Source: an uncultured virus (IMG/VR IMGVR_UViG_3300021197_001384)
Taxonomy: Duplodnaviria > Heunggongvirae > Uroviricota > Caudoviricetes
DNA: 20,000 bases
Virus record (IMG/VR): IMGVR_UViG_3300021197_001384
Direction: 5' to 3' (one strand)
Below, in pieces: positions 1 through 16,638 of the stretch. Position 1 is the first letter of the stretch; each line of letters opens with the position of its first letter. A program made the translations under genes and the position numbers. The notes under the pieces were generated by a model. That model did not search any database. It worked only from the letters and a program-made list of their open reading frames with translations, and was not told the DNA's origin.

Positions 1-1
1 T

Positions 2-133
2 GCGACGATCCACATGATGGTCCTACGCAATCCAGATGCCGATGCCCGTGCGGTGAGCAATGCCGAGGCTGAGATCAAGCGGATGGCGAAGATGGCCGAT
101 GCTTACTCCAAGCTTGTAAAGGAGGGCAAATAA
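2..133 (+). CDS. 3' end of a small hypothetical early protein (partial, enters from the left edge)
   Basis: Open frame ...ATIHMMVLRNPDADARAVSNAEAEIKRMAKMADAYSKLVKEGK, TAA at 131-133, next ATG 1 nt later. Confidence 0.6.
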   Translation, partial: ATIHMMVLRNPDADARAVSNAEAEIKRMAKMADAYSKLVKEGK

Positions 134-134
134 G

Positions 135-293
135 ATGCCTGAGAACAACCGCACCCTGACCTTTGAACTGACCGACTGTGATCACTGCAAAGCCTACGCT
201 GAACTGGTCCGCAGCTGCACCGACGCTGGCCTGCCGTTCAAGATCTGGAACGTTGGCACGGCGGCCATCATCAAAATCGGGGAGGGCTACTAA
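135..293 (+). CDS. small hypothetical protein (52 aa) with a CxxC motif
   Basis: Not in the ORF track. Reads MPENNRTLTFELTDCDHCKAYAELVRSCTDAGLPFKIWNVGTAAIIKIGEGY*; GGAGG upstream; fills the gap between neighbours exactly. Confidence 0.65.
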   Translation: MPENNRTLTFELTDCDHCKAYAELVRSCTDAGLPFKIWNVGTAAIIKIGEGY

Positions 294-294
294 G

Positions 295-537
295 ATGATC
301 AGAACGATTGACGTATTGGTTCCGAACCCCACCAACCCAGACGGTGATGACATCGTGCTGATGGCTGACGTAGAAGTGATTCGTGAGCGTGTTACGGCCC
401 CCTGCCATACAAGCTGGGTGGAGGGTCATGTGGAGATCCTGAGCGTGCTCGACCACGCTGAGGACGATGTGACCAAGTGGGCCATCGAGCAACACGCAGA
501 CGACATCGTCCACGCAGCATTGGAGGCCGGACTATGA
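295..537 (+). CDS. hypothetical early protein (80 aa)
   Basis: Track ORF 178..537 with start moved to ATG 295 (MIRTIDVLV...), which follows GGAGGG and the upstream TAA. Confidence 0.7.
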   Translation: MIRTIDVLVPNPTNPDGDDIVLMADVEVIRERVTAPCHTSWVEGHVEILSVLDHAEDDVTKWAIEQHADDIVHAALEAGL

Positions 538-755
538 ACTGGGGCACCGAATATCTGCTCCACCATCTGGGCAAGGCTACGGCCACCCTGCGTGACGTCC
601 CTCGGGGCACTCCGAGGCATCGCAAGAGCATGTTCCTGCAGGCGATGGTCTCCCACTCCATGTGGCTGCAGGAGTCCACTGGATCTGGCAATCGGGCCAA
701 GCGCAGGCTGCAGCATGACCGCTGGCTGATGATGAACCGCGAGCTGTATGGCTGA
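534..755 (+). CDS. hypothetical early protein (73 aa, basic)
   Basis: ATGA overlap with the previous stop; GGAGG upstream; MNWGTEYLLHHLGK... Confidence 0.65.
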   Translation: MNWGTEYLLHHLGKATATLRDVPRGTPRHRKSMFLQAMVSHSMWLQESTGSGNRAKRRLQHDRWLMMNRELYG

Positions 756-799
756 GATCCTCACCGAGCTGACCTTCGGGTCGGCTCCATGAGCACCTC
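754..799 (+). ncRNA. unidentified structured hairpin motif, copy 1 (CC/CA internal loop, UUCG tetraloop)
   Basis: Lower stem 754-763/790-799 (2 mismatches), internal loop CC 764-765 / CA 788-789, 9-bp upper stem 766-774/779-787 with one G-U pair, loop TTCG. Confidence 0.6.
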
Positions 800-842
800 T
801 GCTCGAAACCAAAACAACTGTAAATCGAAAGTATCAAAAATG
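783..842 (+). repeat. 60-nt intergenic direct repeat, copy 1, ending in the next start codon
   Basis: Matches 1125-1184 at 58 of 60 positions: GGCTCCA[T/A]GAGCACCTC[T/C]GCTCGAAACCAAAACAACTGTAAATCGAAAGTATCAAAAATG. Confidence 0.95.
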
Positions 843-1100
843 TCAGAAGAATCGAAATTCCTGTTCCTCGTTGCCACCGCAGATCAATGCTGGGGTCGGG
901 GCACCACACCGAAGGAAGCGGCAGGGAAGGCCATCGAGGCCGGTGCTCGCAAGGCGTCAGCGGCGTGCTGCTACGTCATCGTTGGGGCGAAAGATCCCGA
1001 AGAGGTCTGCGTAAACGATGACGGCTGGGTCTGCTGGCCCACTGGGACCGATGACCACATGTTCCGCGTCAAGCGGGTCAGTGCGCTGCTGGGTTGGTGA
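840..1100 (+). CDS. hypothetical early protein (86 aa)
   Basis: Start set at the ATG that ends the repeated leader (MSEESKFLFLVATADQCWGRG...). Confidence 0.75.
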   Translation: MSEESKFLFLVATADQCWGRGTTPKEAAGKAIEAGARKASAACCYVIVGAKDPEEVCVNDDGWVCWPTGTDDHMFRVKRVSALLGW

Positions 1101-1141
1101 TGCTCTCCGAGCCCAGTGACAGTGGGCTCCAAGAGCACCTC
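1097..1141 (+). ncRNA. unidentified structured hairpin motif, copy 2
   Basis: Lower stem 1097-1106/1132-1141 (2 mismatches), CC 1107-1108 / CA 1130-1131 internal loop, upper stem GAGCCCA/TGGGCTC; compensatory changes relative to copy 1. Confidence 0.6.
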
Positions 1142-1184
1142 CGCTCGAAACCAAAACAACTGTAAATCGAAAGTATCAAAAATG
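1125..1184 (+). repeat. 60-nt intergenic direct repeat, copy 2
   Basis: Same sequence as 783-842 apart from two substitutions. Confidence 0.95.
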
Positions 1185-2015
1185 ATTAATAACTTAGAAT
1201 CCTACGCACCTGCAGCCATGACCACTTTTGCCGCTCCTGAGCGCAGTGATCGGTATGCCCATCTGACCACCAGTGACGTGGTCGATGTGCTCGCGGCTGA
1301 TGGGTGGGCATTGAACCGAGCTACCCAGACCAGTGCTCGGAGTGATCGTGGCAAGCTGCATGGCAAGCATGTGTTGGACTTCCACCATCCTGAGCTGCCA
1401 GCGGTCAATGAGGAGTATCGGCCCCGTCTGGTGCTCCAGAACGCCTCGGATGGCACCAGTGCGGTTCGGATGTTCGCGGGGTTCTTCCGGTTCGTCTGTG
1501 CCAACGGAATGGTCAGTGGAGACGCTGCCATGAGCATGGTGGCACGCCATACTGGCAAGGGGCTGCAGGAGGCGGTCGTGACTGGAGCGGCTGAGATCCG
1601 TGGCCGGATGGACATGATGCAAGACCGTATCAGCCGCTGGGGCGCCACCGAGATCAACGCCATCGATGGCATCGAGTTCGCCAAAGCGGCCTGCAAGGTG
1701 CGGTGGCCTAAGGCTGAGATGGTTGTCGGTCGTGAGGGCCTCTACGACTTCCAAGACCACTCCGGTCGCGCCATCGATGTTGTTGGTGCCCTCCGCACCC
1801 GTCGTCGCGCTGACGACTCCCACGACCTCTGGTCCGTATTTAACCGGATCCAAGAGGCAGTCACCAAGGGATTCGTCAATCAAGCCACCATCCGAGATGG
1901 CTACCGCGACATCCGGTCTACCCGTCGCGTCAGCAGCGCGATCCAAGATCTCAAGATCAACCGCGAGCTGTGGAACGTAGCCGAAGAAGTGGCCGTGGCC
2001 TACGGTGTGAACTGA
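1182..2015 (+). CDS. DUF932/DUF945 family protein
   Basis: Family-like motifs SDRYAHLTT, LQNASDGTSA, AGFFRFVCANGMV, RRRADDSHDLWSVFNRIQE, LKINRELW. Start at the ATG ending repeat copy 2. Confidence 0.88.
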   Translation: MINNLESYAPAAMTTFAAPERSDRYAHLTTSDVVDVLAADGWALNRATQTSARSDRGKLHGKHVLDFHHPELPAVNEEYRPRLVLQNASDGTSAVRMFAGFFRFVCANGMVSGDAAMSMVARHTGKGLQEAVVTGAAEIRGRMDMMQDRISRWGATEINAIDGIEFAKAACKVRWPKAEMVVGREGLYDFQDHSGRAIDVVGALRTRRRADDSHDLWSVFNRIQEAVTKGFVNQATIRDGYRDIRSTRRVSSAIQDLKINRELWNVAEEVAVAYGVN

Positions 2016-2075
2016 GTCGAAACACCCTGCGGGGTGTCTGCGGAAACTGACCAACCCGCACTGATGAGACGGTCG
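2016..2075 (+). ncRNA. type II hammerhead ribozyme with loop I / 3' tail pseudoknot; predicted cleavage after C2038 (GUC)
   Basis: GTC-GAAA-CACCC TGCG GGGTG-TC-TGCGG(loop)CCGCA-CTGATGA-GAC. All core nucleotides present; stems I, II and III pair perfectly; loop TGACC 2048-2052 pairs with tail GGTCG 2071-2075. Confidence 0.93.
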
Positions 2076-2097
2076 TAACAACAACTGTAATCCAAAA

Positions 2098-2565
2098 ATG
2101 AAAATTAATAAGTCCCTTAATAAAACCGAACAACGTCTTCTCGACTTCGTGACAACGGCAATATCAACGCATCGCCAGCGCCCAGCCTTCCCGCTTAGCG
2201 ACTTGGTCGCCTCATTCAAGGTCGACAATCGCCTTCCGACGCAGTGCCAAGATCTCGGCCTCGTGGAAAGGGTTCGCGGTATTGGCTATGTTTGGCGAAC
2301 CGACGATCCAGTGAAGGCGTTCAACGCGATTTGCGAGCTTCGTAAAAAGGAGGCGCGACAAAAGCGAGCGCCGGATCAACAGACGCAAACGGTCTTTACG
2401 GAAGCGACGACGACCGCTGACGCTGACGCTGATCAGCAAGGGCCGGATCTTCGCACGCTTGAGACTCAAATCATGGCCATACATGAGCGAATCAGCGACC
2501 TCGAAAACACGCTGCTCGACGCTGTTGTCGAGCTCACGAACCAAGTCATCGAGATCAAAAAATGA
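2098..2565 (+). CDS. hypothetical protein, possible winged-helix N-terminus and coiled-coil C-terminus
   Basis: 155-aa ORF after an A-rich leader; heptad-like C-terminus LRTLETQIMAIHERISDLENTL. The domain guess is inference. Confidence 0.7.
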   Translation: MKINKSLNKTEQRLLDFVTTAISTHRQRPAFPLSDLVASFKVDNRLPTQCQDLGLVERVRGIGYVWRTDDPVKAFNAICELRKKEARQKRAPDQQTQTVFTEATTTADADADQQGPDLRTLETQIMAIHERISDLENTLLDAVVELTNQVIEIKK

Positions 2566-2741
2566 AAACCTACTTCCATCAAGCCCACTACGCGCTCAGA
2601 AGCGCCCTTTGCAGCGCATTCTACGCCCTTTCCATGTGGTCGGGGCGTCAGGCTGCCAAAAACTGGCGCAAGGCCGAGAAAGCAGCTTTGGCTGAGACCA
2701 ATGCCTACCGTCAGCACAAGGAGGTCAGTCGTCATGAGTGA
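2562..2741 (+). CDS. small hypothetical protein (59 aa)
   Basis: Not in the track. MKTYFHQAHYALRSALCSAFYALSMWSGRQAAKNWRKAEKAALAETNAYRQHKEVSRHE*; ATGA overlap upstream and 8-nt overlap downstream. Confidence 0.6.
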   Translation: MKTYFHQAHYALRSALCSAFYALSMWSGRQAAKNWRKAEKAALAETNAYRQHKEVSRHE

Positions 2742-2922
2742 CGTCACGAATTATGATGTCATCGTAGCGATGGACAAGTTTGGTGGGGGCTTCGTGAAAG
2801 CCTTGGCCGGAGCTGCCCTACGTGCAGACAGTCGCAACCTCGGCCGGATCAAGCGAGCGTTCCCCGATTATTGGGAGCAATACACCATCTTAGCCGGTCT
2901 GGACAAGGAGGTCTGGCGATGA
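2734..2922 (+). CDS. conserved small phage early protein (62 aa)
   Basis: AAGGAGG upstream of ATG 2734; the pattern GGGFVKALAGAALRADSRNLGRIKRAFPDYW resembles a recurrent small hypothetical phage family (recollection, unverified). Confidence 0.75.
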   Translation: MSDVTNYDVIVAMDKFGGGFVKALAGAALRADSRNLGRIKRAFPDYWEQYTILAGLDKEVWR

Positions 2923-3299
2923 GTGCCTTGAAGCCCCGCAAGCGTGGCCGTCCCTTTGGGACATCCAAGCCCGAGCAACGCAAGACGCTCAGGCGGATGT
3001 GGCTTTCCCCCCGGGCTGAGGCTGCAGTGTCCGTCCAGCAGGAAATGCTGCGTGCCAGCCTGCGGGTGAGGGCGAGCTTCGGTCAGGCTTTTGAGCTGAT
3101 CGCCATCGCGCAAAGCGAAGGGACCACTCCGCTGGATGTGATGCGCGGTTTGATAAAGAAGTATGGCCGAAAGCAGATGACTGTGCTGAAATATCTAAAT
3201 CGACTCAACGATGACTTAGTGGAGCCCGAGGAAGATTCCGATGAGGCGCCGCTGACGAGTGAAGAGAAAATCAATTTCGAGGATAACGGGTCACTCTGA
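2919..3299 (+). CDS. putative DNA-binding protein with AT-hook-like motif
   Basis: ATGA overlap, AAGGAGG upstream; N-terminal KPRKRGRPFG and acidic C-terminus. Confidence 0.65.
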   Translation: MSALKPRKRGRPFGTSKPEQRKTLRRMWLSPRAEAAVSVQQEMLRASLRVRASFGQAFELIAIAQSEGTTPLDVMRGLIKKYGRKQMTVLKYLNRLNDDLVEPEEDSDEAPLTSEEKINFEDNGSL

Positions 3300-3339
3300 T
3301 TCGCCCTCAAAACCAAAGACCAAAAAGAAAGATAAAAAA

Positions 3340-4032
3340 ATGAGCTTAATCGCTAAAGAATCCGGAGGTTCCGCCTCCTTTGATCCAGTTGCCGCAGGAA
3401 TGCACCCAGCCCGATGCGTCGGTGTGGTGGATCTGGGCACTCAAGAAAGTTACGACAAGGCATTTGCGCCGAAGCGCCAAGTGTTGATCACATGGGAGAT
3501 CCCATCAGAGCGCATCGACATCGATGAGGACGGCAAGACCGTGTCCAAACCGAGGTTCATCTCCAACACCTACACGCTGTCGCTGAACGGAATGTCGAAC
3601 CTGCGCAAGACGCTCGATAGCTGGCGTGGTCGGGCGTTCACGGCCGAGGAGTTGGAAGGCTGGGATCTGTTCAACATCCTTTCGGCGCCCTGCCTGTTGA
3701 ACGTGACGCACAAGTCGAGCAAAGATGGGCAGAAGACCTACGCCAACGTGACCTCGGTGAACCCGTTGCCGAAGGGCATGGACTGCGGCCAGCAGGAATC
3801 GGATACGATGAGTTGGTCGATTGATGACCAGCCTGACTGGAAGAGCACTGCGCTGGAACTGCCGACGAACGTGCCTGAGTGGGTCAGTAAGAAGATCGCG
3901 CAGAGCGAGGAATACGTGCAAAGCCATCTGCCGACCGAAGCTCGCAAGAAGGAGCCCAATCACCTGCAGGACGCCAAGCCTGCCTTCGATGTGAGCACCG
4001 GAAGCGACGACGAGGACGAGCCGCCCTTCTGA
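3340..4032 (+). CDS. putative ssDNA-binding protein (OB-fold-like, acidic tail)
   Basis: Start after an A-rich leader; motifs HPARCVGVVDLGTQ and SNLRKTLDSWRGRAF; C-terminus DDEDEPPF mimics the SSB tail. Confidence 0.7.
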   Translation: MSLIAKESGGSASFDPVAAGMHPARCVGVVDLGTQESYDKAFAPKRQVLITWEIPSERIDIDEDGKTVSKPRFISNTYTLSLNGMSNLRKTLDSWRGRAFTAEELEGWDLFNILSAPCLLNVTHKSSKDGQKTYANVTSVNPLPKGMDCGQQESDTMSWSIDDQPDWKSTALELPTNVPEWVSKKIAQSEEYVQSHLPTEARKKEPNHLQDAKPAFDVSTGSDDEDEPPF

Positions 4033-4055
4033 TCTCGTCTGATCCCTGAACCAAC

Positions 4056-4087
4056 AGCCCCGCCTCCTTGGATGGAAGCGGGGTTTT
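4056..4087 (+). terminator. terminator-like hairpin between the SSB-like gene and the HNH gene
   Basis: AGCCCCGC-C-TCC/GGA-A-GCGGGGTT stem with only four T's in total, so probably leaky. Confidence 0.5.
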
Positions 4088-4105
4088 CGGGTGATGAATA
4101 ACAAT

Positions 4106-4645
4106 ATGAAATCAGAAAACGAAGAAGTCTTCCGGCCCATTGCTGGCTATGAAGATCTCTACCTAATCTCCTGCTCCGGTCGAGTTCAATCGTTACCGAG
4201 ATGGGTCGTCTGCAATGGCGTTATGGCCCTCAGGGATGGACGGATCTTGAAGGGAAGCTCACATCCTGATCGATACAGGATAGTCGGCCTCTGGCGTGAC
4301 GGAGTTAGGTGGACAAGTTACATTCACCGACTGGTGGCCCAAGCGTTCCTGAGTAATCCCGATGGCAAGCCGCAAGTGAACCACATCGATGGAGACAAGG
4401 CCAATAACCGGATGGAAAATCTGGAGTGGGTCACTGACCTTGAGAATAAGCGACATGCCATGGAGACTGGGCTGACAATAAAGGGCGAGGACCACGGTAA
4501 CTCCAAGCTCACGGAGGAGGAGGTCCTTTACATTCGGAGCAATCCCGACGGGCTCACTCAGCGTGAGCTGGCCACCAAGCTGGAAGTCTCCCAATCCGTG
4601 ATCTGCAACATCCAGCTCGGCAAGACATGGGGGCACGTTCAATGA
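4106..4645 (+). CDS. NUMOD4-HNH homing endonuclease with C-terminal HTH
   Basis: NUMOD4 (EVFRPIAGYEDLYLISCSGRVQS), HNH (IHRLVAQAF...VNHIDGDKANNRMENLEW), HTH (TQRELATKLEVSQSVICNI). Start could also be 4091 or 4094. Confidence 0.93.
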   Translation: MKSENEEVFRPIAGYEDLYLISCSGRVQSLPRWVVCNGVMALRDGRILKGSSHPDRYRIVGLWRDGVRWTSYIHRLVAQAFLSNPDGKPQVNHIDGDKANNRMENLEWVTDLENKRHAMETGLTIKGEDHGNSKLTEEEVLYIRSNPDGLTQRELATKLEVSQSVICNIQLGKTWGHVQ

Positions 4646-4866
4646 GCCGAGCGCATCTCGCCGCCGTCACCCTGACCGTCACTTTCTGTGGCATCGTGCC
4701 GAAGGGAGTCACGGCAGGTGGTCCCAAGGCTTGGCTCAAGCAGCGGGTCCGGCACATGAATTTGGAGATCGAAGGCTTCGTCCAAGTGGACCGAGTAGCC
4801 GAGATCTCCGTCAACCCAGAGCCGGTCGAACTGCCACCAGCTCATCAACTCAACCCAGAAAAATAA
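4642..4866 (+). CDS. hypothetical protein (74 aa)
   Basis: ATGA overlap with the HNH stop; MSRAHLAAVTLTVTF... Confidence 0.6.
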   Translation: MSRAHLAAVTLTVTFCGIVPKGVTAGGPKAWLKQRVRHMNLEIEGFVQVDRVAEISVNPEPVELPPAHQLNPEK

Positions 4867-4871
4867 GCACC

Positions 4872-5381
4872 ATGCACATCATCAAAGTCAGTCATTCCCG
4901 AAAGAGCATCTCCGTCACCTTCACCGTCGAAGACGAGAAGCGAGTCATCGTCAGTCACGACAACCCATTGCCGTCCTTCGCGAAGGCGTTCCACCCATTG
5001 CCCAAGGTAGCCTGTGGGCTGCTGGAGCTTCCGGATTCCTACGCCGATGGCATGAAGATCACTGGCATCCAGATCCAGACCAAGGGTGGGAATGAGCACG
5101 TCATCCTGACTGGCACCAAGGATCTCCCTGATTCCAGTCAGCTCTTCAGGTTCTCAACTCCTCCCCGCTTGCTTGAGCAGCCGGTGGAGGAGGGGAAATA
5201 CTCTCCCCCGATCAGCGACAAGCAGGCTGACCTGATTGCCGATGCGCTCCATGAGGTGGCCAAGTATGCTCGCGGCGAGCGAGCGCAGGGCCAACTGGAT
5301 CTGGAGGACGACGACGACAAGTCGGAGGCCACCAAGGCTGCTGCTGATTCCGAAGGCCAAGAGGTCATGGCAGGAGTCTGA
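4872..5381 (+). CDS. hypothetical phage protein (169 aa)
   Basis: Start at ATG 4872 (MHIIKVSHSRK...), 5 nt after the upstream stop; C-terminal GERAQGQLDL plus acidic tail. Confidence 0.75.
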   Translation: MHIIKVSHSRKSISVTFTVEDEKRVIVSHDNPLPSFAKAFHPLPKVACGLLELPDSYADGMKITGIQIQTKGGNEHVILTGTKDLPDSSQLFRFSTPPRLLEQPVEEGKYSPPISDKQADLIADALHEVAKYARGERAQGQLDLEDDDDKSEATKAAADSEGQEVMAGV

Positions 5382-5447
5382 GTTCAGTGCCTGCCGGTGG
5401 GCCTAAGCACCGGCACCAATTTCACCCAAACAACTGAAAGGAAAATC

Positions 5448-5915
5448 ATGAAGACAACGATAGGAGAACATATGGCCAAGGCCGTGGTCGCAGACTACGC
5501 CAAGGGCAAGCGATACAACGAGGCGCAGCTGGCCAAGAGACTGGACGAGCTGGTCATGCAATACCGAGCGGTGGAGGAGGCCCCCAAGGTAAAGAGCATC
5601 TGGGACGTGAGCTCTCTCGACATCTACAACGCCTACCCTCGCAGGGTAGCGAAGACGGCCGCACTGAAGGCGATTGGCAAGGCGATGATGGGCTGGCCTC
5701 ATGATATGCTGCTGGAGCGCACTGAGGCGTTCAAGGAAGCCACGGACAAGTGGCCTGAGGGGGACCGCAAGTTCATCCCGCACCCGAGCACGTGGTTCAA
5801 CAACGAGGGGTTCGACGAGGATCCCAAGGAGTGGGTCCGCAAGAGCGACGAGCAACTGAAGCAGGAGCGCCGTGAGGCCAAGGCGAGTGAACCCACCAAC
5901 TACGAGGTCTTCTGA
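5448..5915 (+). CDS. replication initiator/replisome organiser-like protein
   Basis: YNAYPRRVAKTAALKA and FIPHPSTWFNNEGFDED motifs typical of phage initiator C-terminal domains; directly upstream of a DnaC-like ATPase. Confidence 0.75.
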   Translation: MKTTIGEHMAKAVVADYAKGKRYNEAQLAKRLDELVMQYRAVEEAPKVKSIWDVSSLDIYNAYPRRVAKTAALKAIGKAMMGWPHDMLLERTEAFKEATDKWPEGDRKFIPHPSTWFNNEGFDEDPKEWVRKSDEQLKQERREAKASEPTNYEVF

Positions 5916-6721
5916 TGAATATCCCTGACAACGTGATTCCCTTTGCTGACATTGGATTGGATGAGTTCGGGGGCATGAGCCCCCAGCAGATCGGAACGAT
6001 CCCAGCCGATGAGAACTGGTCCCCCCTGAAGGAGGAGATCGAGGTGACCTGCCGAGTCTGCGAGCGGGAGAAGTTCCGAGCGGTTCGATTTCTTGCCGGT
6101 AAGATGGCCTGCCCTAGCTGCTGCGATGCCCATGAGCTGGAGGATTTGAAGAACCAGTGCAGGGTGGCGTGGGAGCGGCTTGCTCCGTCCATGTTTCGGG
6201 AGACCGATGTGAAGCATCCTGACTTCCCGAAGGGGATCTGGAAGGAGCTGAAGGCCAGTTGGGATCTCAACGAGAGTTTGGTGCTCTACGGCCCGACTGG
6301 TGCAGCGAAGACCCGGGTGGCCATGCTGCTGCTGCAGTGGGCAATGTTCAAAGGAAAGACCGTGGACGCGATCTGGCCGGAAGAACTGGTGGAGTTTGCC
6401 AAGGGCCGTGATCGTCTGAAGAAGATCCAGAGCCTTGGTTCCAACAACGTGCTGCTGCTCGATGATGCTCTGCTGACTGGTGCGGCCGATGAACGGGTGG
6501 CCAGCTTCTGTAAGGACATTATAGATTTTTCCCAGCGCCATGGGAACTCCATCATCATCACCACGCAGGTGGGTGGCGAAGCCTACAAGCAAGCTAGTGA
6601 CAAGTGGGAGAACGCCACGAAGGCCGACAGGGAGCGCATTGAGGCCCTGCTCAGGCGCATTCGGCAGGTGGGCAGAGTGATCCCCTTCGTGCAGCCTGAC
6701 AAAGACGAGGAGAGCTTCTAA
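5915..6721 (+). CDS. DnaC/IstB-like AAA+ ATPase (helicase loader)
   Basis: CxxC...CxxC at the N-terminus, Walker A GPTGAAKT, Walker B VLLLDD, IIITTQ sensor region; TGATG overlap with the initiator. Confidence 0.82.
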   Translation: MNIPDNVIPFADIGLDEFGGMSPQQIGTIPADENWSPLKEEIEVTCRVCEREKFRAVRFLAGKMACPSCCDAHELEDLKNQCRVAWERLAPSMFRETDVKHPDFPKGIWKELKASWDLNESLVLYGPTGAAKTRVAMLLLQWAMFKGKTVDAIWPEELVEFAKGRDRLKKIQSLGSNNVLLLDDALLTGAADERVASFCKDIIDFSQRHGNSIIITTQVGGEAYKQASDKWENATKADRERIEALLRRIRQVGRVIPFVQPDKDEESF

Positions 6722-6722
6722 T

Positions 6723-6995
6723 ATGAAAATAAAGGAGATTCAGCATGAACCTCTGCGCTACTGGGCATCGAGCAGCACCCGCAACATGACCTACGTGGTC
6801 GATCTTTCGGAGAACGAGGGCAATGGGTCTTGCTCCTGCGCTGACTTCATCACCCGAAGGAACCAAGCCATCCAGCAGGGGGAGGAGTTGTTCACCCGCA
6901 AGACCAGCTGCAAGCACCTGCTTGCGGTGCGCAAGCACTTCCTGAAGACCACCCTGCGCGAGATGGCGAGGATCATCAACAAGGGAGGACGGTGA
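6723..6995 (+). CDS. SWIM zinc-finger protein
   Basis: YVVDL...CSCADF...CKH pattern (CxC-xn-CxH). Confidence 0.8.
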   Translation: MKIKEIQHEPLRYWASSSTRNMTYVVDLSENEGNGSCSCADFITRRNQAIQQGEELFTRKTSCKHLLAVRKHFLKTTLREMARIINKGGR

Positions 6996-7348
6996 CCTAC
7001 GATCACGATGGGAAGCTGATCCGGTTTGACCTGAACGGGAAGCGGGTGAGCGGCACGGTGGTGAAAACCCATGACCGTCGCCATGTCACCGTCCGTGGCA
7101 GGTCAGGCAAGACCGTGAAGGTGGACATGCTCGACCAGCATGGCGTGGTTGCCTTGCCCAGTGGGTTGGAGGTCACCACCATTTGGAATGAGGATCACCC
7201 ACCGAATGGAGTGCCTGCTGATCGGGCTGAGTTTCATCGTGCTGTCGATGATCCTCCTGCGCCTGCTGTGGCTCCTGCTCCAACTCTAAAGCCTGCGCGT
7301 CCTGCTCAGGCACCAACAACAACAACTGAGCAAATGATATTCTTATGA
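6992..7348 (+). CDS. hypothetical protein with Pro/Ala-rich C-terminus
   Basis: GTGA overlap, GGAGG upstream, 118 aa. Confidence 0.6.
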   Translation: MTYDHDGKLIRFDLNGKRVSGTVVKTHDRRHVTVRGRSGKTVKVDMLDQHGVVALPSGLEVTTIWNEDHPPNGVPADRAEFHRAVDDPPAPAVAPAPTLKPARPAQAPTTTTEQMIFL

Positions 7349-7833
7349 ATCACACCAACACACAGGCCAAGATCCTGAGCCTCGACTTAGCAACCACCAC
7401 GGGGTGGGCCTTCATTGCCAACGGTGTCGTGGATCATGGAGCCCAGAGCTTCAAGCTCGGCACCAAGAAGGCAGACCCGAAGCATGCTGGGCTGCCCTTC
7501 GCCCAGTTCGACCACTGGATTGCCAATCGCATCAGGGACTACAAGCCTGAGCTGATCGTCTACGAGGAAGTCCGCAGGTGGATGAGCAGCAGTGCTGCAT
7601 GGGCCTTCTGTGGCTTCCGTGCCACGATGCTAATGCATGCTGCTCGAAACGGCATCGAGTGCATCGGCTACAGTCCGACCACTATCAAGAAGTTCGCCAC
7701 TGGTAGCGGTGCTGCGAACAAGAAGAAGATGATCGAGACGGCCAAGATGCGTTGGCCTGACGAGCAGTTCGCTTCGGACGATGCGGTGGATGCGTTGTTC
7801 CTGCTGCATCTCCATCTGGCAGGAGCCCCATAA
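7345..7833 (+). CDS. RuvC-like Holliday junction resolvase
   Basis: ILSLDLATTTGWA, IVYEE, PTTIKKFATGSGAANK and DDAVDAL give the RuvC acidic catalytic pattern. Confidence 0.88.
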   Translation: MNHTNTQAKILSLDLATTTGWAFIANGVVDHGAQSFKLGTKKADPKHAGLPFAQFDHWIANRIRDYKPELIVYEEVRRWMSSSAAWAFCGFRATMLMHAARNGIECIGYSPTTIKKFATGSGAANKKKMIETAKMRWPDEQFASDDAVDALFLLHLHLAGAP

Positions 7834-7985
7834 GCCGTGGTCCTGTCCATTTCTAGGCCATTTCCAGCCCATACTGGGGTCTAGGTATAGGCTGGACACT
7901 AGAACCGCCTTAATTTACGTCCGTTACCCAGAGAAGGCTATAGCGAGGAAACGTCCGAGTAGAATACGACGCTAACGGGTTTTCT

Positions 7986-8026
7986 ACCCCCGTCACCTGT
8001 TACCGCAGGGGCGGGGGTTTTTCTTT
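7986..8026 (+). terminator. rho-independent terminator ending the + strand arm
   Basis: ACCCCCGTCACCTG/CAGGGGCGGGGGT stem followed by TTTTCTTT, at the convergence of the two arms. Confidence 0.85.
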
Positions 8027-9292: not shown

Positions 9293-11569
9293 TTAGTTAT
9301 TTTCCAATGCCTCAAGACGGGCCGTCAGTTCCTGTAGTGCACCGACGAGCAGAGGCACTAGCTTGGATTGGTCGATTCCTTGGTATTCTGGCACCGACCT
9401 AGTGCCCATGACGGCAGGAGTGACTTCGTTTCCGTCGTCATCTAATACCGCTGGAGTGACCTCGTATTCCTCGTCACGCATTGCATTTTTTTCGCCGGAT
9501 ATTGCTTCCGGAACGACCTCTTGAACTTCGTGAGCGATAAATCCATCCACGATCCTCTTGTCATCAGAGATGAAGTTGAAGCGGCTGGGCTTGAGCTTGC
9601 CGATGCGTTGCAGCGAATCCGACATTGGCACCACGTTTTCCTTCAAACGATAGTCCGAAGAGGTGTTGTATGCCGTGGAGGTCTGGTTGGTGGTAATCGT
9701 GCCGCAGGTCTGCGTGGCACTTATAAAGATGGCTTGGGTCTGCACCCCAGCCCCCATCTTCCCGAAGCGGACGTATTTGCTGGCGTTATCCCACGCAAAC
9801 CCACCGACTCCAACGGTGGGCATTGTCATTCCGCTGAAGATGGCGTCGCCGCCAGATTTAAGCGTCATTCTCTCGGTTCGAGTGCCTGCTGAGTTCTCTA
9901 CAAAGGTTAGGTTATTTTGTGATCCTCCTCCACTTGGGTCTTGGAGCGAGGTCTCCCACCAATAACTTGGGTTAGTGGTGTAAAGACTTATGAAGTTCCG
10001 ATAGTTCTCAGAACCGCTTCCTCCTTGGAATCGGGCCAATTCGGTAGCACCAGATACAGAACCTTTAAATACGTGTAGGGGTGCCGCCGGTGCCGTGATC
10101 CCAATGCCGACCTCGCCAGTAGCCAAAACTCGCATTCTCTCGACACCATCCTTGTCGTTAAGCTCAAGGATTCGATCACCCGAATTGCTACCAGCACTAA
10201 TTTCTAATCCGTTGCCGCTGGCTGTTGAGTTTGAAATCAGTCCGACAAAATCGGTGGTCGCGCCACTTACGGTGAACAACCGTGAAGGTGTAGACGTCCC
10301 CACGCCGACGTTGCCGCTCGTCGCGAGCGTCATTTGCGGAAACGAATTGTTCGTTCCGAAGATCAGCGGATGGTTAGTGGTAGTCCCGATAGCAAACGAG
10401 TTGGTCAGCGTGGTGCTGCCGTAAATGATGCCGTTGACCGTTCCGTCGTTGACCGCGATGCCGCCATTGGTGGCAGTTTGGACGCTTAGCTTGGTGCTCG
10501 GTCCCGTCGTCCCCACGCCGACGTTGCCTGCGGCGGTGATTCGCATGGCTTCACTGTCAAGTGAGCCGCCGCCTCCACCTGTGCGAAACGACATGGACCC
10601 AGTCCCAGCCGTTGCGCCCCATGAACGAATCCGGAAGTCGTTATTATTAAAATCGAGACCGCCCGCACTTGTTTGATTAAGAGAAACTCCTCCCCGTGCA
10701 AGGACAGGACCATTTACATCGAGAGTTGACTTCCCCGTTCCGGCTGGGGCAGGTGCCGTCAATCCGATGCCGAGGCCAGTGGAGGTGAATGTAGCGACAT
10801 CGCCAGTTCCGACGACTCCAACCTTGGTGCTACTCTGCGTGAGATTGAGTATGCGACCTGTGCCGACGTGGTCGTAAATCGAAAGACCAGCCGACCCAGC
10901 GTAAAGGCGGGTTTCGTTTGAAACGTCTAGACCAAAAAGACGCCCGAAAAAATCAACTTGTGTGCTTGCACTCAGACTCGTCGCCGCCACCGTGCTCGGC
11001 GTCGTCGCCCCAATCGTCGTGCCGTCAATCGTCCCGCCGTTAATGTCTGCCGTGTCAGCAACCAGCGAGTCGATGTTCGCCGTGCCGTCGAGGTAGAGGT
11101 TGCGCCACTCGTGGCCCGTGCGACCAAGGTCGTAGGTGTTGTCGGTGGCTGGCGTAAACTCAGATGCAATCCGAGCGTTGAACGTCACCGTGTCACTATT
11201 GCTGCTACCGAGAGTCGTGTTGTTGTTAATCGACAATGCATCTGCCGTAAGCAGGTTGGCATCACTGACTGTAACCCCAGAATTTTGTATGACCTTGCCG
11301 GTTGTGCTATCAAAACGAGCAACAGCATTATCCGTAGATGACGCTGGTCCAACTACATCACCAGCACCATTAGACGTCCATTCCACATCTGTAGCCGTGC
11401 CATTCAAAGAAAGCACTTTATTTGCATTTCCCGTATAATCAGGAAGCAAATTAACACGGGCATCAGACGCATTGTCAGCCCCTGTTCCACCGTTAACAAC
11501 GGGCAATACGCCAGAAATATTTTCCAGGGAGTCTGGTGTATCCAGAATCAGGGTCTTAAAAACGTCCAT
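9293..11569 (-). CDS. tail fibre with C-terminal intramolecular chaperone (peptidase S74)
   Basis: Gly/Thr/Ser-rich; repeated GNVG[VI]GT.xP units; SDYRLKENV...GFIAHEVQEVVPEA...IDQSKLVPLLVGALQEL chaperone domain. Confidence 0.92.
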   Translation of the reverse strand: MDVFKTLILDTPDSLENISGVLPVVNGGTGADNASDARVNLLPDYTGNANKVLSLNGTATDVEWTSNGAGDVVGPASSTDNAVARFDSTTGKVIQNSGVTVSDANLLTADALSINNNTTLGSSNSDTVTFNARIASEFTPATDNTYDLGRTGHEWRNLYLDGTANIDSLVADTADINGGTIDGTTIGATTPSTVAATSLSASTQVDFFGRLFGLDVSNETRLYAGSAGLSIYDHVGTGRILNLTQSSTKVGVVGTGDVATFTSTGLGIGLTAPAPAGTGKSTLDVNGPVLARGGVSLNQTSAGGLDFNNNDFRIRSWGATAGTGSMSFRTGGGGGSLDSEAMRITAAGNVGVGTTGPSTKLSVQTATNGGIAVNDGTVNGIIYGSTTLTNSFAIGTTTNHPLIFGTNNSFPQMTLATSGNVGVGTSTPSRLFTVSGATTDFVGLISNSTASGNGLEISAGSNSGDRILELNDKDGVERMRVLATGEVGIGITAPAAPLHVFKGSVSGATELARFQGGSGSENYRNFISLYTTNPSYWWETSLQDPSGGGSQNNLTFVENSAGTRTERMTLKSGGDAIFSGMTMPTVGVGGFAWDNASKYVRFGKMGAGVQTQAIFISATQTCGTITTNQTSTAYNTSSDYRLKENVVPMSDSLQRIGKLKPSRFNFISDDKRIVDGFIAHEVQEVVPEAISGEKNAMRDEEYEVTPAVLDDDGNEVTPAVMGTRSVPEYQGIDQSKLVPLLVGALQELTARLEALENN

Positions 11570-11570
11570 T

Positions 11571-11897
11571 TTACAAATAGTTCAACTCTTGCATTTCAAG
11601 CACAGCATCCGTGCTTGCTTCCCGAATGGCCTTAACCTTGGAAACCATTTCCCGTGTCCAATAAACAGAGCTTCCTGGCGGCATACGGTAACCCAATGAA
11701 GCGGTAGGATCAGTGGTGCCATCCATCGTTACACGAATCGCAGCATCATTAACCTGAACAAGCACGTGCGTCGTGCCAGAGTTTAGGGTCCAATCCAAGA
11801 CCTGCTCCGCCGTAGAACTAATTGTGTTCTGTTGGTGAGTGGTGGTGTTCTGGGGGATTGCCTGAGAAGGCGTATTAACAATTCTTGCGTTAGGCAT
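11571..11897 (-). CDS. small virion structural protein (108 aa), paralogue of 11902-12216
   Basis: Start at ATG 11897 (MPNARIVN...); aligns by eye with the upstream gene. Confidence 0.7.
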   Translation of the reverse strand: MPNARIVNTPSQAIPQNTTTHQQNTISSTAEQVLDWTLNSGTTHVLVQVNDAAIRVTMDGTTDPTASLGYRMPPGSSVYWTREMVSKVKAIREASTDAVLEMQELNYL

Positions 11898-11901
11898 GAG
11901 A

Positions 11902-12216
11902 TTAAACAGTAAAGGGTGATGCCTGCACGGCTGCGTCCGTTCCGCCAGCACGAATCATAATTGCGCTATCTGCTTGTCGGGCCGACCAGAAGCCTTTCCA
12001 TCCAGACTCAAACTTGTGTCCGTTTGACGCAGAAGGAACGGAACGATCAAAGGTAACCATAATATCGGCACCTTGAACATCAACATAAACAAACTTGGTG
12101 TTTTCGTCATACCAAGTTGACGTAAACTCAATAGGAACCGTAGAAACCGTCAAACGCTCATCTGTGCCGCCTTCGGTGGGGACAGGATAAAGATTAACTG
12201 AAAAGGTATTAGGCAT
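11902..12216 (-). CDS. small virion structural protein (104 aa)
   Basis: Beta-rich ORF tightly packed between the adaptor and tail fibre genes. Confidence 0.7.
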   Translation of the reverse strand: MPNTFSVNLYPVPTEGGTDERLTVSTVPIEFTSTWYDENTKFVYVDVQGADIMVTFDRSVPSASNGHKFESGWKGFWSARQADSAIMIRAGGTDAAVQASPFTV

Positions 12217-12220
12217 AGTA

Positions 12221-13078
12221 TTAACGTGATTGGCGAGAAACGTAAGTTGAAATTCGACGATATAAAGCGTTATTGTTTCTCTGGGTTTCTGCTTTATCCA
12301 ATTCTATCAAAAGGTATTGCTGCGCCACATTCTCTTCTGCAATGGCCTTGTCAATCTGACCGTCCATACGCAAGAAGTCTGCATATGCTGCGTGCGCTAT
12401 ATATTCAAAAAACTCCGACGGGATGTTGGTAGATGAATCCGAATATGGGCCTTCCCACTTTTTCAAATAACCCACCCAAAAGCCGCCAAGGTCCGTATAG
12501 TTATTAATTACATTAGCACCATCACTACCAACCCAAAACTCATACTCAATAGCAGAGTTAATGTTTAGTGGATTGCTGCTCCAAATACGATTAAAGCTAT
12601 CAATCTCAGGAACGCTATTAGCAATCACGCTCCCAGATCCCGTGTAAGTTTCAACACCAGTTCCCGTTGCAAGATTATATGTAAACGTATCGTTATTGAT
12701 TGATCCTGTGCTTACTGATACAACCTGATAGCTACCATTTGGATCAACAGAACCAGTTAATCCAGAAACAGTAACATACATTCCCTCTACAAAATCAACA
12801 GACGCGGTGCATCTAATTGTAACTAATTTATCTACACGGGAAGCAGCAGCAATGTTTTTGGAAGCAGGGGTAAATGTCGTAGAAATAACATTACCAACCG
12901 CTGGCCGTGCTTGTGCCCCAACAATATAACGCGGCCAAACTTTGTTCTGTCGATAAGCCTGATAAGCTCTACGATTAACAAAGTTAAGGATGCTTCCTTT
13001 TTCGCTAGGGTTAAAGTTGCTTACCCCAGAAAGCGAGCTAATTAAGGAGTAGAGATCACTATACGTCCGATTGGTCAT
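12221..13078 (-). CDS. putative head-tail adaptor / tail tubular protein with inserted beta domain
   Basis: Helical N-terminus (TYSDLYSLI...FVNRRAYQAY...WP) and C-terminus (IPSEFFEYIAHAAYADFLR) typical of podovirus adaptors; position after the capsid gene. Confidence 0.65.
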   Translation of the reverse strand: MTNRTYSDLYSLISSLSGVSNFNPSEKGSILNFVNRRAYQAYRQNKVWPRYIVGAQARPAVGNVISTTFTPASKNIAAASRVDKLVTIRCTASVDFVEGMYVTVSGLTGSVDPNGSYQVVSVSTGSINNDTFTYNLATGTGVETYTGSGSVIANSVPEIDSFNRIWSSNPLNINSAIEYEFWVGSDGANVINNYTDLGGFWVGYLKKWEGPYSDSSTNIPSEFFEYIAHAAYADFLRMDGQIDKAIAEENVAQQYLLIELDKAETQRNNNALYRRISTYVSRQSR

Positions 13079-13383
13079 ATCTTGTTAGGAGAAAGATGTG
13101 GGAACTTCTTTTGGTAATACTTCATAAACTCCTTAGAATGAACCTCTTTATGCCCATATTTTTGCTGCATACGGAAAAACTCCCACTCGGGGATCACACC
13201 AATACAGCGACCAAGCCCAGGCACTTCCTTTTGATTCACCAAATCCTTTGCCTGTTCAGCCGCTTGCGCTTCCTTTGACCGTTCAATTTCTTTCTTAAAC
13301 TCTAGCCCAGTAGTAAGCTCACGCATCAAAGCGCGATTAACTTCTCCGTCGTGATACTTAGGGAATGACGTAATTAAGTGCAT
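13075..13383 (-). CDS. small hypothetical protein downstream of the capsid gene
   Basis: 102-aa ORF overlapping the adaptor start; IP...W...F...P pattern. Confidence 0.75.
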   Translation of the reverse strand: MHLITSFPKYHDGEVNRALMRELTTGLEFKKEIERSKEAQAAEQAKDLVNQKEVPGLGRCIGVIPEWEFFRMQQKYGHKEVHSKEFMKYYQKKFPHLSPNKI

Positions 13384-13390
13384 AATAATA

Positions 13391-13412
13391 GGGCTACCCC
13401 GAAGGATAGCCC
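13391..13412 (-). terminator. UUCG hairpin after the major capsid gene (attenuator or stabiliser)
   Basis: Minus strand GGGCTATCC-TTCG-GGGTAGCCC followed by TATTATT, a weak U tract. Confidence 0.65.
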
Positions 13413-13442
13413 CATTATAACATGTAAGTCTAGTAGTTAGAT

Positions 13443-14426
13443 TTACGCAATAGCGGTAATCTTACCGTGAGCACCAGGGTGCTTGACCAACAGGGACAAG
13501 GTCGTGTCAACGTAACCACGCTCACCGCCACCTTGATTCGGAAGGCGGGTCGAACCAAGACCGATCAACTCGGCAACGCCGTAGTAGTCAGGATTAATGA
13601 GGTAACCCGTGTCTTTGTTCGTCGTGTCAGGGGAGCAGTCAGGGTTCATGTTAACAATGCTCACCATACCGTGATCAGACTCATACATCTCAACAGAGAG
13701 TTTGATGGTCTTGGAATCAGCAGATTGGGTAACCTGACGGTAAACCGCGTTGGTCGATCCAGAGGTGCGAGCATAGTCAGCAATAACCCGACGAAGAGCA
13801 GTGTCAGCAACCAAGGTAAGGTTGTTGGTGCTGCCAGTCACTCGGTAGATGGACGTGATAAGGTCGTTAAAGCCGCCTTCGGTCAGAGCACCCGTGCTGT
13901 GGATGGAATCCGCAGGGGTGCGGTAATCGGCAGGAACGTCAGTCGGACCAGCCGAATCAATCCAGTCACCAAGGCCGCGCAGACCATAAACAGTGCCAGC
14001 ACCATCTTCAGCCGTGCGATCATTGGTGGAGCAGAGGGTGGCCTCCACGTCACGCTTCAGTTCACGAGCAGACTTAGCTTCGGCCTCAGCAATCTTAGCC
14101 GGTCCAACGGACTCAACGGCATCTTGCAGGTCCGAAACCATGAAGTCACGGCGGAACTTTTGCACATAGTTGCCGAGACGAGCGCGGCCACTAAACTTGT
14201 CGGTGAAGGAGGAAACGTCAGAACCCTCGGCAACACCCGTGGTAACAGGAGCAGCCAGCGAATCAACCGTCCACTCAACGAAGGTGGCGGTTGCCTTGCT
14301 TTTGGGAGCAGACGAAAGAACAGGAGTTTCCTCGGGAGCGAGGATGGTCAGGATGTCGGTGAGGTCTTCACGATTGGAGACGCCGGACCCTGGATTGGTA
14401 GTATCGTAGGTATTAGAAAAGGCCAT
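13443..14426 (-). CDS. major capsid protein (DUF5309/SU10-like)
   Basis: NREDLTDIL...PEETP...EWTVDSL...EG.D...RLGNYVQ...ELKRDVE signature; follows the scaffold gene. Confidence 0.92.
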   Translation of the reverse strand: MAFSNTYDTTNPGSGVSNREDLTDILTILAPEETPVLSSAPKSKATATFVEWTVDSLAAPVTTGVAEGSDVSSFTDKFSGRARLGNYVQKFRRDFMVSDLQDAVESVGPAKIAEAEAKSARELKRDVEATLCSTNDRTAEDGAGTVYGLRGLGDWIDSAGPTDVPADYRTPADSIHSTGALTEGGFNDLITSIYRVTGSTNNLTLVADTALRRVIADYARTSGSTNAVYRQVTQSADSKTIKLSVEMYESDHGMVSIVNMNPDCSPDTTNKDTGYLINPDYYGVAELIGLGSTRLPNQGGGERGYVDTTLSLLVKHPGAHGKITAIA

Positions 14427-14441
14427 GATTATAAAGTAAAA

Positions 14442-15572
14442 TTATTTACGCTTAGAGTGTTGAAGAGTGCGGAGAGCTATAAAGTCCTGTGTAGCACCTG
14501 AAGTTGAGAATCGTTGTTGGACGTCTTTCACTGCCTTAGCAGTGCGAGGTTCTGGCTGCTCGCTTTGAGCAGTGGAACTAATCGAGATAGACGGAGGAGT
14601 GATTCTTGCGCTAGGCTTTGGCTGATTAACTGGCTTCCGATTATAAATGGAATTAGCAGCGTGAGCTATCATATATTCCATATACGGTTCCAAATCAGGC
14701 ACCTTCTCTACAGCCTCTTTAATCAAGGGGCTTTCGCGAAGGGATTCAAACTGCTTTCGCACATCATTGTCCTCTCCATCAATCCAAGAAAGCTCGGACT
14801 TAACAGCTTCAGAAAACTGCGCCTTCATATTAAGGCGTTGCTCTTTAGCCTGTAAATCCTGCAATCGTGCAGGCAAAAACGTCTTACGGGATTTTTGGGA
14901 ATCTCGCAAAACCTTTCGCACCTGAGCCTTTGTAATCTCTTGGTCGCCATTTTGTGCAACAACATCATCTGCTGCCAGATGGTCATTATTCCACAAAACA
15001 TCTTCTGCCCATTCAATAGCTTCGTCAATTTCGCGGGCTTTTGCCTGCAAATCTTCAACGGAATTGATGTCAGAAAAGGGGTTGTTTTCAACCTTCTTAA
15101 CTTCCAAGGGATCTTTTTGGCTTTCACGACTTTGCATTTCCTGCTTCAAGGCATTAAGCTGTTCCTCGGCTTGCTTACGCTTTGCGGTAAGCTCACCAAA
15201 TCTAGCTACTGCTCGGCTCCCTAGCTTTTCGGCTAGTTCACGAAGCTCGGCCTCTGACATGGATTCTAGGTCGATCTCGCTCTTAGAAAGAACTTCCTCT
15301 TCGTCTTGGCTTTCAGGCTGATCCTCGTTGACGATTTCCGCGTTAGATTCGTCTTGAGGTTCTGGAGCAGTTTCCTCCTCCACCTGTTCTGCCTTAACTT
15401 CCGATTCTTGGGGTTCTGTATTAATCTCCTTAGTAAACACTTTAGGTTCACCAGAAGGTTTTCCATCACCACCTTTGCGATGGAGTGCATACATTCCAAA
15501 CGCAAGATTATCTGACTGTTCCGCTGGACTTGGTTCACCCGCAGCGTTGGGTGTTAGGACTTCATTAGACAT
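14442..15572 (-). CDS. capsid scaffolding protein
   Basis: Very acidic N-terminus, coiled coil (RFGELTAKRKQAEEQL), Pro-rich linker, directly upstream of the capsid gene; start ATG 15572. Confidence 0.8.
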   Translation of the reverse strand: MSNEVLTPNAAGEPSPAEQSDNLAFGMYALHRKGGDGKPSGEPKVFTKEINTEPQESEVKAEQVEEETAPEPQDESNAEIVNEDQPESQDEEEVLSKSEIDLESMSEAELRELAEKLGSRAVARFGELTAKRKQAEEQLNALKQEMQSRESQKDPLEVKKVENNPFSDINSVEDLQAKAREIDEAIEWAEDVLWNNDHLAADDVVAQNGDQEITKAQVRKVLRDSQKSRKTFLPARLQDLQAKEQRLNMKAQFSEAVKSELSWIDGEDNDVRKQFESLRESPLIKEAVEKVPDLEPYMEYMIAHAANSIYNRKPVNQPKPSARITPPSISISSTAQSEQPEPRTAKAVKDVQQRFSTSGATQDFIALRTLQHSKRK

Positions 15573-15619
15573 AGTTATCAACGCTCTCTTTATACGCCTG
15601 AGCGATTTGCGATAATGAC

Positions 15620-15671: not shown

Positions 15672-15676
15672 TATTT

Positions 15677-16637: not shown

Positions 16638-16638
16638 A

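Follow-up and report, generated by a model that had tools for sequence, protein, structure and literature searches.

Proposed intercistronic cassettes with hairpins, a probable hammerhead ribozyme and a shared leader box in the early operon of an uncultured tailed phage

The role of hammerhead ribozymes in phage operons is a question that has been standing since 2011, and the early operon of an uncultured marine virus (IMG/VR IMGVR_UViG_3300021197_001384) raises it again. In this operon, several intergenic sites share one layout, in which a stop codon is followed by an RNA structure, a leader with a recurring sequence box, and an ATG; at one site the structure is a probable hammerhead and at others it is a hairpin. 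What are these sites for? We analyzed a window of 20,000 nucleotides (nt), which is the whole stretch of DNA under study and part of a 70,251-nt metagenome record, together with 2,819 further bases upstream (L120; window position 1 is L120 position 2820), so that the readable DNA was 22.8 kb. The phage is of the tailed type, its early and replication operon runs on the plus strand from L120:2557 to window position 7833, and the late genes of the window are on the minus strand. We suggest, with about an even chance of being right, that the sites are intercistronic cassettes that combine a 3'-end-forming or stabilizing structure with an unstructured leader devoid of a Shine-Dalgarno (SD) sequence, and that they also act as recombination linkers.

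The original prediction, made from the letters alone, had claimed this layout for three consecutive intergenic regions, with 58 of 60 identical bases between 783-842 and 1125-1184, a third copy that keeps the leader, and no SD sequence at any of the three. All of these claims were borne out. The layout is real at the three sites, the same count of 58 of 60 was obtained, AACAACTGTAA is present at 2080-2090 with AAAAATG ending at 2100, and the 20 nt ahead of each of the ATGs at 840, 1182, and 2098 contain none of the words GGAG, GAGG, AGGA, and AAGG. When the leader was searched for outside these sites, two more boxes were found, at L120:2516 (ATG at L120:2557) and at 5429 (ATG at 5448). We refer to the four sites in the window as modules 1 to 4 and to the upstream box as copy 0. 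The genes and leaders concerned are the following.

534-755, plus strand: 73-amino-acid (aa) open reading frame (ORF) ahead of module 1, stop codon 753-755
840-1100, plus strand: 86-aa ORF, candidate cassette gene, no family match, stop codon 1098-1100
1182-2015, plus strand: DUF932 gene, 277 aa (PF06067, E 1.1e-25)
2098-2565, plus strand: 155-aa ORF, no family match
5448-5915, plus strand: replication-initiator-like gene (phrog_9474 and phrog_270)
780-842, plus strand: repeat copy 1, comprising the hairpin 3' strand, an alternative hairpin (791-804), an A/C-rich leader, the box AACAACTGTAA (813-823), and ATG
1122-1184, plus strand: repeat copy 2, ending on the ATG of the DUF932 gene
2080-2100, plus strand: leader 3, with the box AACAACTGTAA (2080-2090), then CCAAAA and the ATG of the 155-aa ORF
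5429-5450, plus strand: leader 4, with the box AACAACTGAA, a weak AAGGA, and the ATG of the replication-initiator-like gene
L120:2516, 813, 1155, 2080, and 5429, plus strand: the box copies, matches to AACAACTGWA

Modules 1 and 2 contain a long repeat. The stretches 780-842 and 1122-1184 are identical at 60 of 63 bases, with mismatches at 782, 790, and 800, and both copies end on ATG (840-842 and 1182-1184). The 42 bases of 801-842 are all identical between the two copies, and the 36-mer at 807-842 has an exact copy at 1149-1184, while no match of this kind was found in any of 200 shuffles. The start codons at 840 and 1182 are the same as those of the relatives P0116 (86 aa), P0002 (277 aa), and P0003 (278 aa), whose first residues are identical; P0116 shares 86% identity with the 86-aa ORF and has equal length and the same start.

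The structural examination of modules 1, 2, and 4 gave the following hairpins.

760-793, plus strand: hairpin of module 1, with stem P1 at 760-763/790-793 (4 base pairs, bp) and a 2x2 internal loop CC/CA
766-774/779-787, plus strand: stem P2 of module 1, 9 bp with a UUCG loop
1101-1137, plus strand: hairpin of module 2, with P1 at 1101-1106/1132-1137 (6 bp) and the same internal loop CC/CA as module 1
1109-1115/1123-1129, plus strand: P2 of module 2, 7 bp with a 7-nt loop
5392-5415, plus strand: hairpin of module 4, 8 bp with an 8-nt loop, 10 nt past the stop codon 5379-5381

The hairpins of modules 1 and 2 share one two-part design with 13 pairs each. The hairpin starts 5 nt after the upstream stop codon in module 1 and directly after it in module 2, and in all four modules the structure begins 0-10 nt past the stop codon. 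In both modules the 3' strands lie within the repeat and the 5' strands outside it, and two of the three repeat differences are compensated on the opposite strand: the pair A763-U790 of module 1 becomes U1106-A1132 in module 2, and G771-C782 becomes C1114-G1124. The third difference (800/1142) weakens the small alternative hairpin at 791-804. When we compared the folds with those of shuffled sequences, 756-806 had a z-score of -4.31 with none of 200 shuffles as good, and 1101-1148 had a z-score of -2.89 with 2 of 200 as good. These two hairpins are stable and carry no T run, and they were not called terminator-like in the terminator scan. In a related contig of a marsh metagenome run (X2, described below), 30 loose letters after 1112 pair by eye with 1109-1112, and the resulting 9-bp stem is like P2 of module 1 with its seventh pair flipped from A-U to U-A. 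We also considered whether the hairpins are degenerate hammerheads. This was ruled out, with neither a CUGANGA nor a stem III present and CGAAAC alone in common by eye.

Module 3 carries a different structure in the same slot, a type II hammerhead, whose stem II abuts the stop codon of the DUF932 gene.

2016-2075, plus strand: type II hammerhead, with stem II at 2016-2018/2068-2070, GAA at 2019-2021, and CUGAUGA at 2061-2067
2039-2043/2056-2060 and 2022-2027/2032-2037, plus strand: stem I (5 bp) and stem III (6 bp) of the hammerhead
2048-2052/2071-2075, plus strand: pseudoknot between loop I and the bases just 3' of stem II

The core is complete, with CUGAUGA, GAA, the pair A15.1-U16.1 (A2022-U2037), and C17 (C2038), and the cut is predicted between 2038 and 2039. 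The three stems have 5 (I), 3 (II), and 6 (III) pairs, where the count of stem III includes the 15.1-16.1 pair, and the pseudoknot has five pairs, four of them Watson-Crick. The Rfam model Hammerhead_II (RF02276) matched 2015-2078 over model positions 1-66 of 66 with 31.1 bits, which corresponds to E-values of 5.7e-4 for 1.5 kb and 0.011 for 28.8 kb. The minimum free energy fold of 2010-2080 is this three-way junction. Our own hammerhead descriptor found this site as its sole match on both strands of the 20 kb, and it gave any match in 4 of 300 dinucleotide shuffles. Judged from this anatomy, the hammerhead is probably a genuine ribozyme. No twister, twister-sister, pistol, hatchet, hepatitis delta virus (HDV)-like, or hairpin ribozyme was listed in an Rfam scan of 700-2200 with E up to 10. 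Among distant relatives, our type I/II/III descriptor found no hammerhead in any of the 80 IMG/VR DUF932 loci that were retained out of 557 relatives (29-35% identity, 1.2-kb flanks).

The original prediction had described the structures as interchangeable RNA-processing modules. One part of this stands, namely that a hammerhead occupies the hairpin slot; for the part that makes processing modules of the hairpins no support was obtained, as they have no Rfam match with E up to 10 and no CUGANGA. The corollary that the DUF932 message is bounded on both sides likewise stays half conjectural, and processing at its hairpin side was not borne out.

We then examined the distribution of the box. In the 22.8 kb, AACAACTGWA occurs exactly five times on the plus strand and not once on the minus strand. 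All five copies are intergenic and stand 18-41 nt ahead of an ATG, and copy 0 precedes the first early gene. With up to one mismatch, AACAACTGTAA gave four matches compared with a shuffle mean of 0.29, and none of 200 shuffles reached four. Outside modules 1 and 2, the five copies have just 10-11 nt in common, and the letters after CTG vary among TAA, AAA, and AAC. The sole sigma-70-like site in L120:1800-2600 (TTGAAT-18-TAAAAT, L120:2429-2458) is located upstream of copy 0, so this box would be transcribed as part of a 5' untranslated region. A promoter scan of 1-6000 found three sigma-70-like sites where 2.1 were expected, and none on the plus strand within 756-842, 1101-1184, or 2016-2100. 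A promoter-like site on the minus strand (846-817) was rejected as a candidate, being at the chance level of that scan and specific to copy 1.

By their start sites, the 18 early-strand genes fall into two classes, 9 with and 9 without an SD-like word in the 20 nt upstream. Genes with a clear GGAG or GAGG adjoin or overlap the preceding ORF, whereas the box genes come after long gaps, and four of the five box leaders have no SD-like word, the fifth being leader 4 with its weak AAGGA. The last 30 nt before the box genes are 67-73% A+C with 3-7 G, and their mean predicted unpaired probability is 0.60-0.76 for the five box genes versus 0.24-0.54 for eight other, SD-bearing genes. The leader of a 230-aa gene (3300-3342) has a composition like that of the box leaders and no box. 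We also considered whether the leader encodes an N-terminal peptide. Copies 1-3 are open in frame with the ATG. This reading was nevertheless ruled out because no ATG stands upstream in copy 2, because relatives' proteins begin at the annotated ATGs, and because the frame is not kept in copies 0 and 4.

Two further features of the leaders and the box were observed. The loop region of the small alternative hairpin (795-800 and 1137-1142) is ACCUCU in the first repeat copy and ACCUCC in the second; it resembles the anti-SD end of 16S rRNA and could pair with the GGAGG sites of coupled genes. Module 2 of X2 differs at the stretch corresponding to the ACCUCC loop. In addition, (AAC)4-CTG is found at 7312-7330 in the coding end of the ORF 6992-7348, about 15 nt ahead of the start of a RuvC-like gene at 7345 that has no SD-like word. 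This may be a sixth box that is embedded in coding sequence, or a coincidence.

In order to see how the cassettes vary between relatives, we compared contigs of three public runs, X1, X2 (marsh), and X3 (marine), over 1-6000. Contig 10 of X2 (1,798 nt, depth 6.9) matches 1146-1631, continues with 330 diverged letters, and matches again at 1959-2087, where it differs at 4 of 129 positions and keeps the hammerhead and the box. After 2087 it carries 272 unrelated letters in place of 2088-2569 and then follows 2570-3152. The replacement of the 155-aa ORF has its left junction (2087) within the box, and on the right the match to the window is regained 8 nt into the following gene; X2 is thus a solid case of gene replacement at a cassette. 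The 86-aa gene is present in X2 and 11 of its 19 listed differences fall on third codon positions (binomial p 0.024), indicating that it is under coding constraint. In X3, contig 14 (271 nt, depth 2) runs over 681-755, then 53 other letters, and continues at 1152-1285, so that it has a single module and lacks the 86-aa gene. The 11 letters of X3 that follow the DUF932 stop codon are unlike the hammerhead and too short for interpretation. Contigs of X2 end or begin at 818, 788, and 1146 and a contig of X3 begins at 5425, as expected at repeated words. The proposal that the repeats are sites of gene gain, loss, or replacement is upheld by the X2 replacement at 2088-2569 and by the X3 join from 755 to 1152. 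As for a relative lacking one repeat-bounded gene, which had also been anticipated, the X3 contig without the 86-aa gene is a candidate that may be an assembly collapse.

Within the DUF932 gene of X2, the middle (1632-1958, 327 letters) is too diverged to align at 80% likeness and is represented by the 330 letters mentioned above, while the flanks are 92% (1146-1631) and 97% (1959-2087) alike; the gene is mosaic within itself. Leader 4 of X2 has an extra AAC at 5428 and two single-base indels before the ATG, so the AAC count of the box is polymorphic.

Wider searches returned little that is related. One leader pattern matched at least 119 stretches in viral contigs, which are chance matches in low-GC or coding DNA with a best upstream identity of 13 of 33 among the matches listed; of two further patterns, one matched none and the other 17 stretches, all unrelated on inspection. 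A protein-based locus search of the viral contigs with DUF932, the DnaC-like protein, and P0116 found no close relative, a metagenome scan returned the window's own record alone, and a search of genome contigs with a close DUF932 alignment gave no match. At the DNA level, blastn of 1-8000 against 50,697 phage records found no similar isolated phage, with two short matches, both within the HNH gene.

Based on these observations, we suggest that each cassette has two halves. The structure half, placed right after the stop codon, takes three forms: modules 1 and 2 have the two-part hairpin, module 3 has the type II hammerhead, and module 4 has a simple hairpin. The leader half is G-poor, A/C-rich, predicted to be largely unpaired, carries (AAC)n-UG-W-A, and leads into a start codon without an SD sequence. 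The hammerhead would cleave itself between 2038 and 2039, so that the DUF932 message would end in the stem III hairpin and the next message would open 59 nt ahead of its ATG with the hairpin of stem I. The plain hairpins may reach the same end state less directly, either by blocking 3' exonucleases or by causing pausing or attenuation, and the single-stranded A-rich stretch that they adjoin would be accessible to host endonucleases. Since a terminating ribosome would cover the 5' strand near the stop codon, folding may depend on translation of the upstream gene. The open leader would recruit ribosomes in an SD-independent way to genes that lack translational coupling with the preceding gene. 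Finally, the same sequence recurs between unrelated genes, and so it could serve as a homology patch for the insertion, loss, and replacement of early genes. The cassette thus probably both punctuates the message and marks sites of gene exchange.

Here, we need to consider several results that weigh against this reading. The hairpins of modules 1 and 2 have no match among all 4227 Rfam families (700-2200, E up to 10), the module 4 hairpin is no more stable than its shuffles (z-score -1.15, 29 of 200 as good), and neither is the hairpin at copy 0 (14 of 200 as good). The hammerhead score of 31.1 bits is below the Rfam gathering score of 37, for which reason the hammerhead is absent from a scan at the gathering threshold. 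Its fold is no stabler than that of shuffles (z-score -0.56, 52 of 200 as good), and the pseudoknot by itself is weak, since 281 of 5000 shuffles reach the same. With one mismatch allowed, AACAACTGWA gave six matches against a mean of 2.09, a number reached by 3 of 200 shuffles, and one of the six lies in coding sequence (7321). The box-to-ATG distance of 18-41 nt is odd for a ribosome-positioning signal. With a depth of 2 and an exact repeat of 42 nt, which exceeds the 31 letters of the index words, the X3 join could be a de Bruijn collapse. In X2, the leader has 2 changes in 55 nt and is barely better conserved than the neighbouring gene with 19 listed changes in about 230 nt.

The last of these results is in line with a recent duplication or insertion scar, in which the 86-aa gene would have recombined in from a donor with the same spacer and the spacer would have no special function; the hairpins would then be generic stem-loops, the A-rich leaders ordinary SD-less starts, and the hammerhead an unrelated insertion. 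That modules 1 and 2 alone share sequence beyond the 11-nt box is as this explanation would have it, and the full identity of their 42 bases exceeds the identity between the window and X2, which fits a recent event. Upstream of the box, module 2 of X2 differs from that of the window, where its contig has the loose end after 1112, and for this reason the long repeat may be specific to this lineage. We nevertheless consider a mere scar unlikely, since it does not account for five boxes on one strand, all intergenic and ahead of start codons, for compensated changes that preserve both P1 and P2, for a structure that begins 0-10 nt past the stop codon in all four modules, or for the X2 contig, which keeps the box next to the hammerhead as well as at the point of gene replacement. 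A bolder version of our own reading, in which the hairpins are equivalents of the hammerhead and thus a novel processing signal, cut by a host nuclease, a phage nuclease, or the RNA itself, and in which the AACAACUGWA box recruits ribosomes, would make the module a mobile cassette with a swappable structure half that shuffles early genes among marine phages with SU10-type capsids; we rate it lower still than the scar.

A transcriptional explanation is less probable again. In it, an RNA polymerase modified or encoded by the phage would use the repeat or its box as a promoter, and the hairpin would be a terminator or attenuator, so that the genes would be transcribed separately as with the promoter-stem-loop cassettes (PeSLs) of other phages. 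The order of stop codon, stem-loop, conserved motif, and start codon agrees with that given in a legend of the PeSL paper (PMC2839356), and as 22.8 of the 70.3 kb were read, a phage polymerase or sigma factor may be encoded elsewhere on the record. However, none of the three sigma-70-like sites in 1-6000 lies on the plus strand inside a module, the terminator-like sites do not include the hairpins, which have no T run, and with 10-11 nt common to the boxes beyond modules 1 and 2, a -10-like element would fall in the variable part after CTG. Moreover, copy 0 is downstream of a host-type promoter, and a hammerhead is sensible on a read-through transcript alone. The lowest probability in our view belongs to a protein-binding site, with the box bound as RNA by a translational repressor or nuclease of the phage, or acting as a DNA operator, so that a set of early genes is switched off or on together. 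The box, with its short invariant core, its variable distance from the ATG, and its confinement to one gene set and one strand, looks like a recognition site of this kind. On the other side, the box is not palindromic, its number of AAC units changes in X2, and no RNA-binding regulator was recognized among the 17 early-strand proteins scanned, which is a weak argument as most of them have no family.

Besides the genes of the modules, the window contains the following.

4091-4645, plus strand: HNH/NUMOD4 endonuclease gene
5915-6721, plus strand: DnaC-like loader gene
7345-7833, plus strand: RuvC-like resolvase gene, the last early gene
9293-11569, minus strand: tail fibre gene
13443-14426, minus strand: major head protein gene, whose product groups with SU10-type capsid clusters
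L120:1896-1921, 1945-1959, and 2045-2059: exact repeats of the control region

The control region is a divergent region of about 700 nt upstream of the early operon. In it, a 13-nt sequence is duplicated exactly and in tandem, and a 15-nt sequence occurs twice without mismatch, 100 nt apart; both are candidates for operator or regulator sites. Directly ahead of the HNH/NUMOD4 gene is a GC-rich hairpin with TTTT after it (4058-4083); contigs of X1 and X2 are joined here from 4025 to 4094 or 4102 and cover the gene patchily, and the region looks variable, fitting a mobile endonuclease gene. After the RuvC-like gene, about 190 nt of non-coding sequence (7834-8025) end in a strong GC-rich hairpin and a T run. 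This stretch has no Rfam match and a fold z-score of -1.79 (9 of 200 shuffles as good), and could be a 3' untranslated region, a small RNA, or merely the operon terminator. GC content is about 0.52-0.62 in the early region versus about 0.39-0.48 over much of the late region (11200-19600), with 0.54-0.57 at 13600-14400; the genome is compositionally mosaic.

The value of this locus is that the hammerhead and ordinary hairpins share both a slot and a leader box, which provides a natural side-by-side comparison. Because the two stand in equivalent slots, the old question of what hammerheads are for becomes approachable by experiment, and the purpose of the hairpin slot would also tell the purpose of the ribozyme. 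The leader, compact, without an SD sequence, and with an invariant core, is suited to reporter tests. If the hairpins merely stabilize, then the locus illustrates two known phage habits in a tidy but ordinary way.

The layout can be compared with four known systems. In phage T7, RNase III processing hairpins stand between the early genes and each cut mRNA ends in a stabilizing stem. The hairpins described here resemble them in having internal loops and in lying between consecutive early genes of one long transcript, but their stems total 13 bp (4+9 and 6+7), which is short for RNase III. Unstructured A-rich or CAA-rich leaders allow SD-independent initiation, for example the type that depends on ribosomal protein S1, and the CAA-rich omega leader has been reported to work in E. 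coli. Like them, the box leaders are G-poor and A+C-rich, contain AAC/CAA repeats, have high predicted accessibility, and lack an SD sequence; unlike them, they keep a specific invariant core, AACAACUG, beyond mere base composition.

The available text of Perreault et al. (2011; PMC3088659) describes multiple hammerheads that flank single genes or short gene blocks in prophages and phages, and proposes that they cut long phage transcripts into single-gene mRNAs. The same text states that most, not all, type II hammerheads have a pseudoknot between loop I and the 3' tail, that stem II can be as short as 2 bp, and that in Agrobacterium the flanked gene is the anti-restriction gene ardA (PMC3088659). 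As far as that text goes, the ribozyme described here is alike in being on the coding strand between early genes, in being type II with a pseudoknot, and in flanking variable genes, and differs in that its slots are tied to a shared leader box without SD sequence. A second difference is that one ribozyme is found in 22.8 kb, with the equivalent slots filled by hairpins that are not ribozymes.

PeSLs are described in the available part of Arbiol et al. (2010; PMC2839356) as repeated cassettes of T4-type phages, composed of stop codon, stem-loop, promoter, SD sequence, and start codon, which mediate the insertion, deletion, and replacement of small genes. As far as that description extends, the modules are like PeSLs in being intergenic stop-to-start cassettes with a stem-loop ahead of small genes of no known function, and in that close relatives show indels or replacement at them, as at the X2 junction at 2087 and in the X3 join of depth 2, which may be an artefact. 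Unlike PeSLs, they have no sigma-70 promoter in the repeat, no SD sequence in four of five leaders, and no T run, and one of them is a ribozyme cassette. Comeau et al. (2014) is reportedly a further paper on the PeSLs of T4-type phages. With neither a promoter nor an SD sequence, the locus lacks two features that define PeSLs, and the phage itself is not T4-type, its capsid protein grouping with the SU10 type. Hammerheads that flank phage genes and promoter-stem-loop cassettes that shuffle them were thus already known, from 2011 and 2010, respectively; this locus combines both habits and connects RNA punctuation with modular gene exchange in a phage lineage unrelated to T4.

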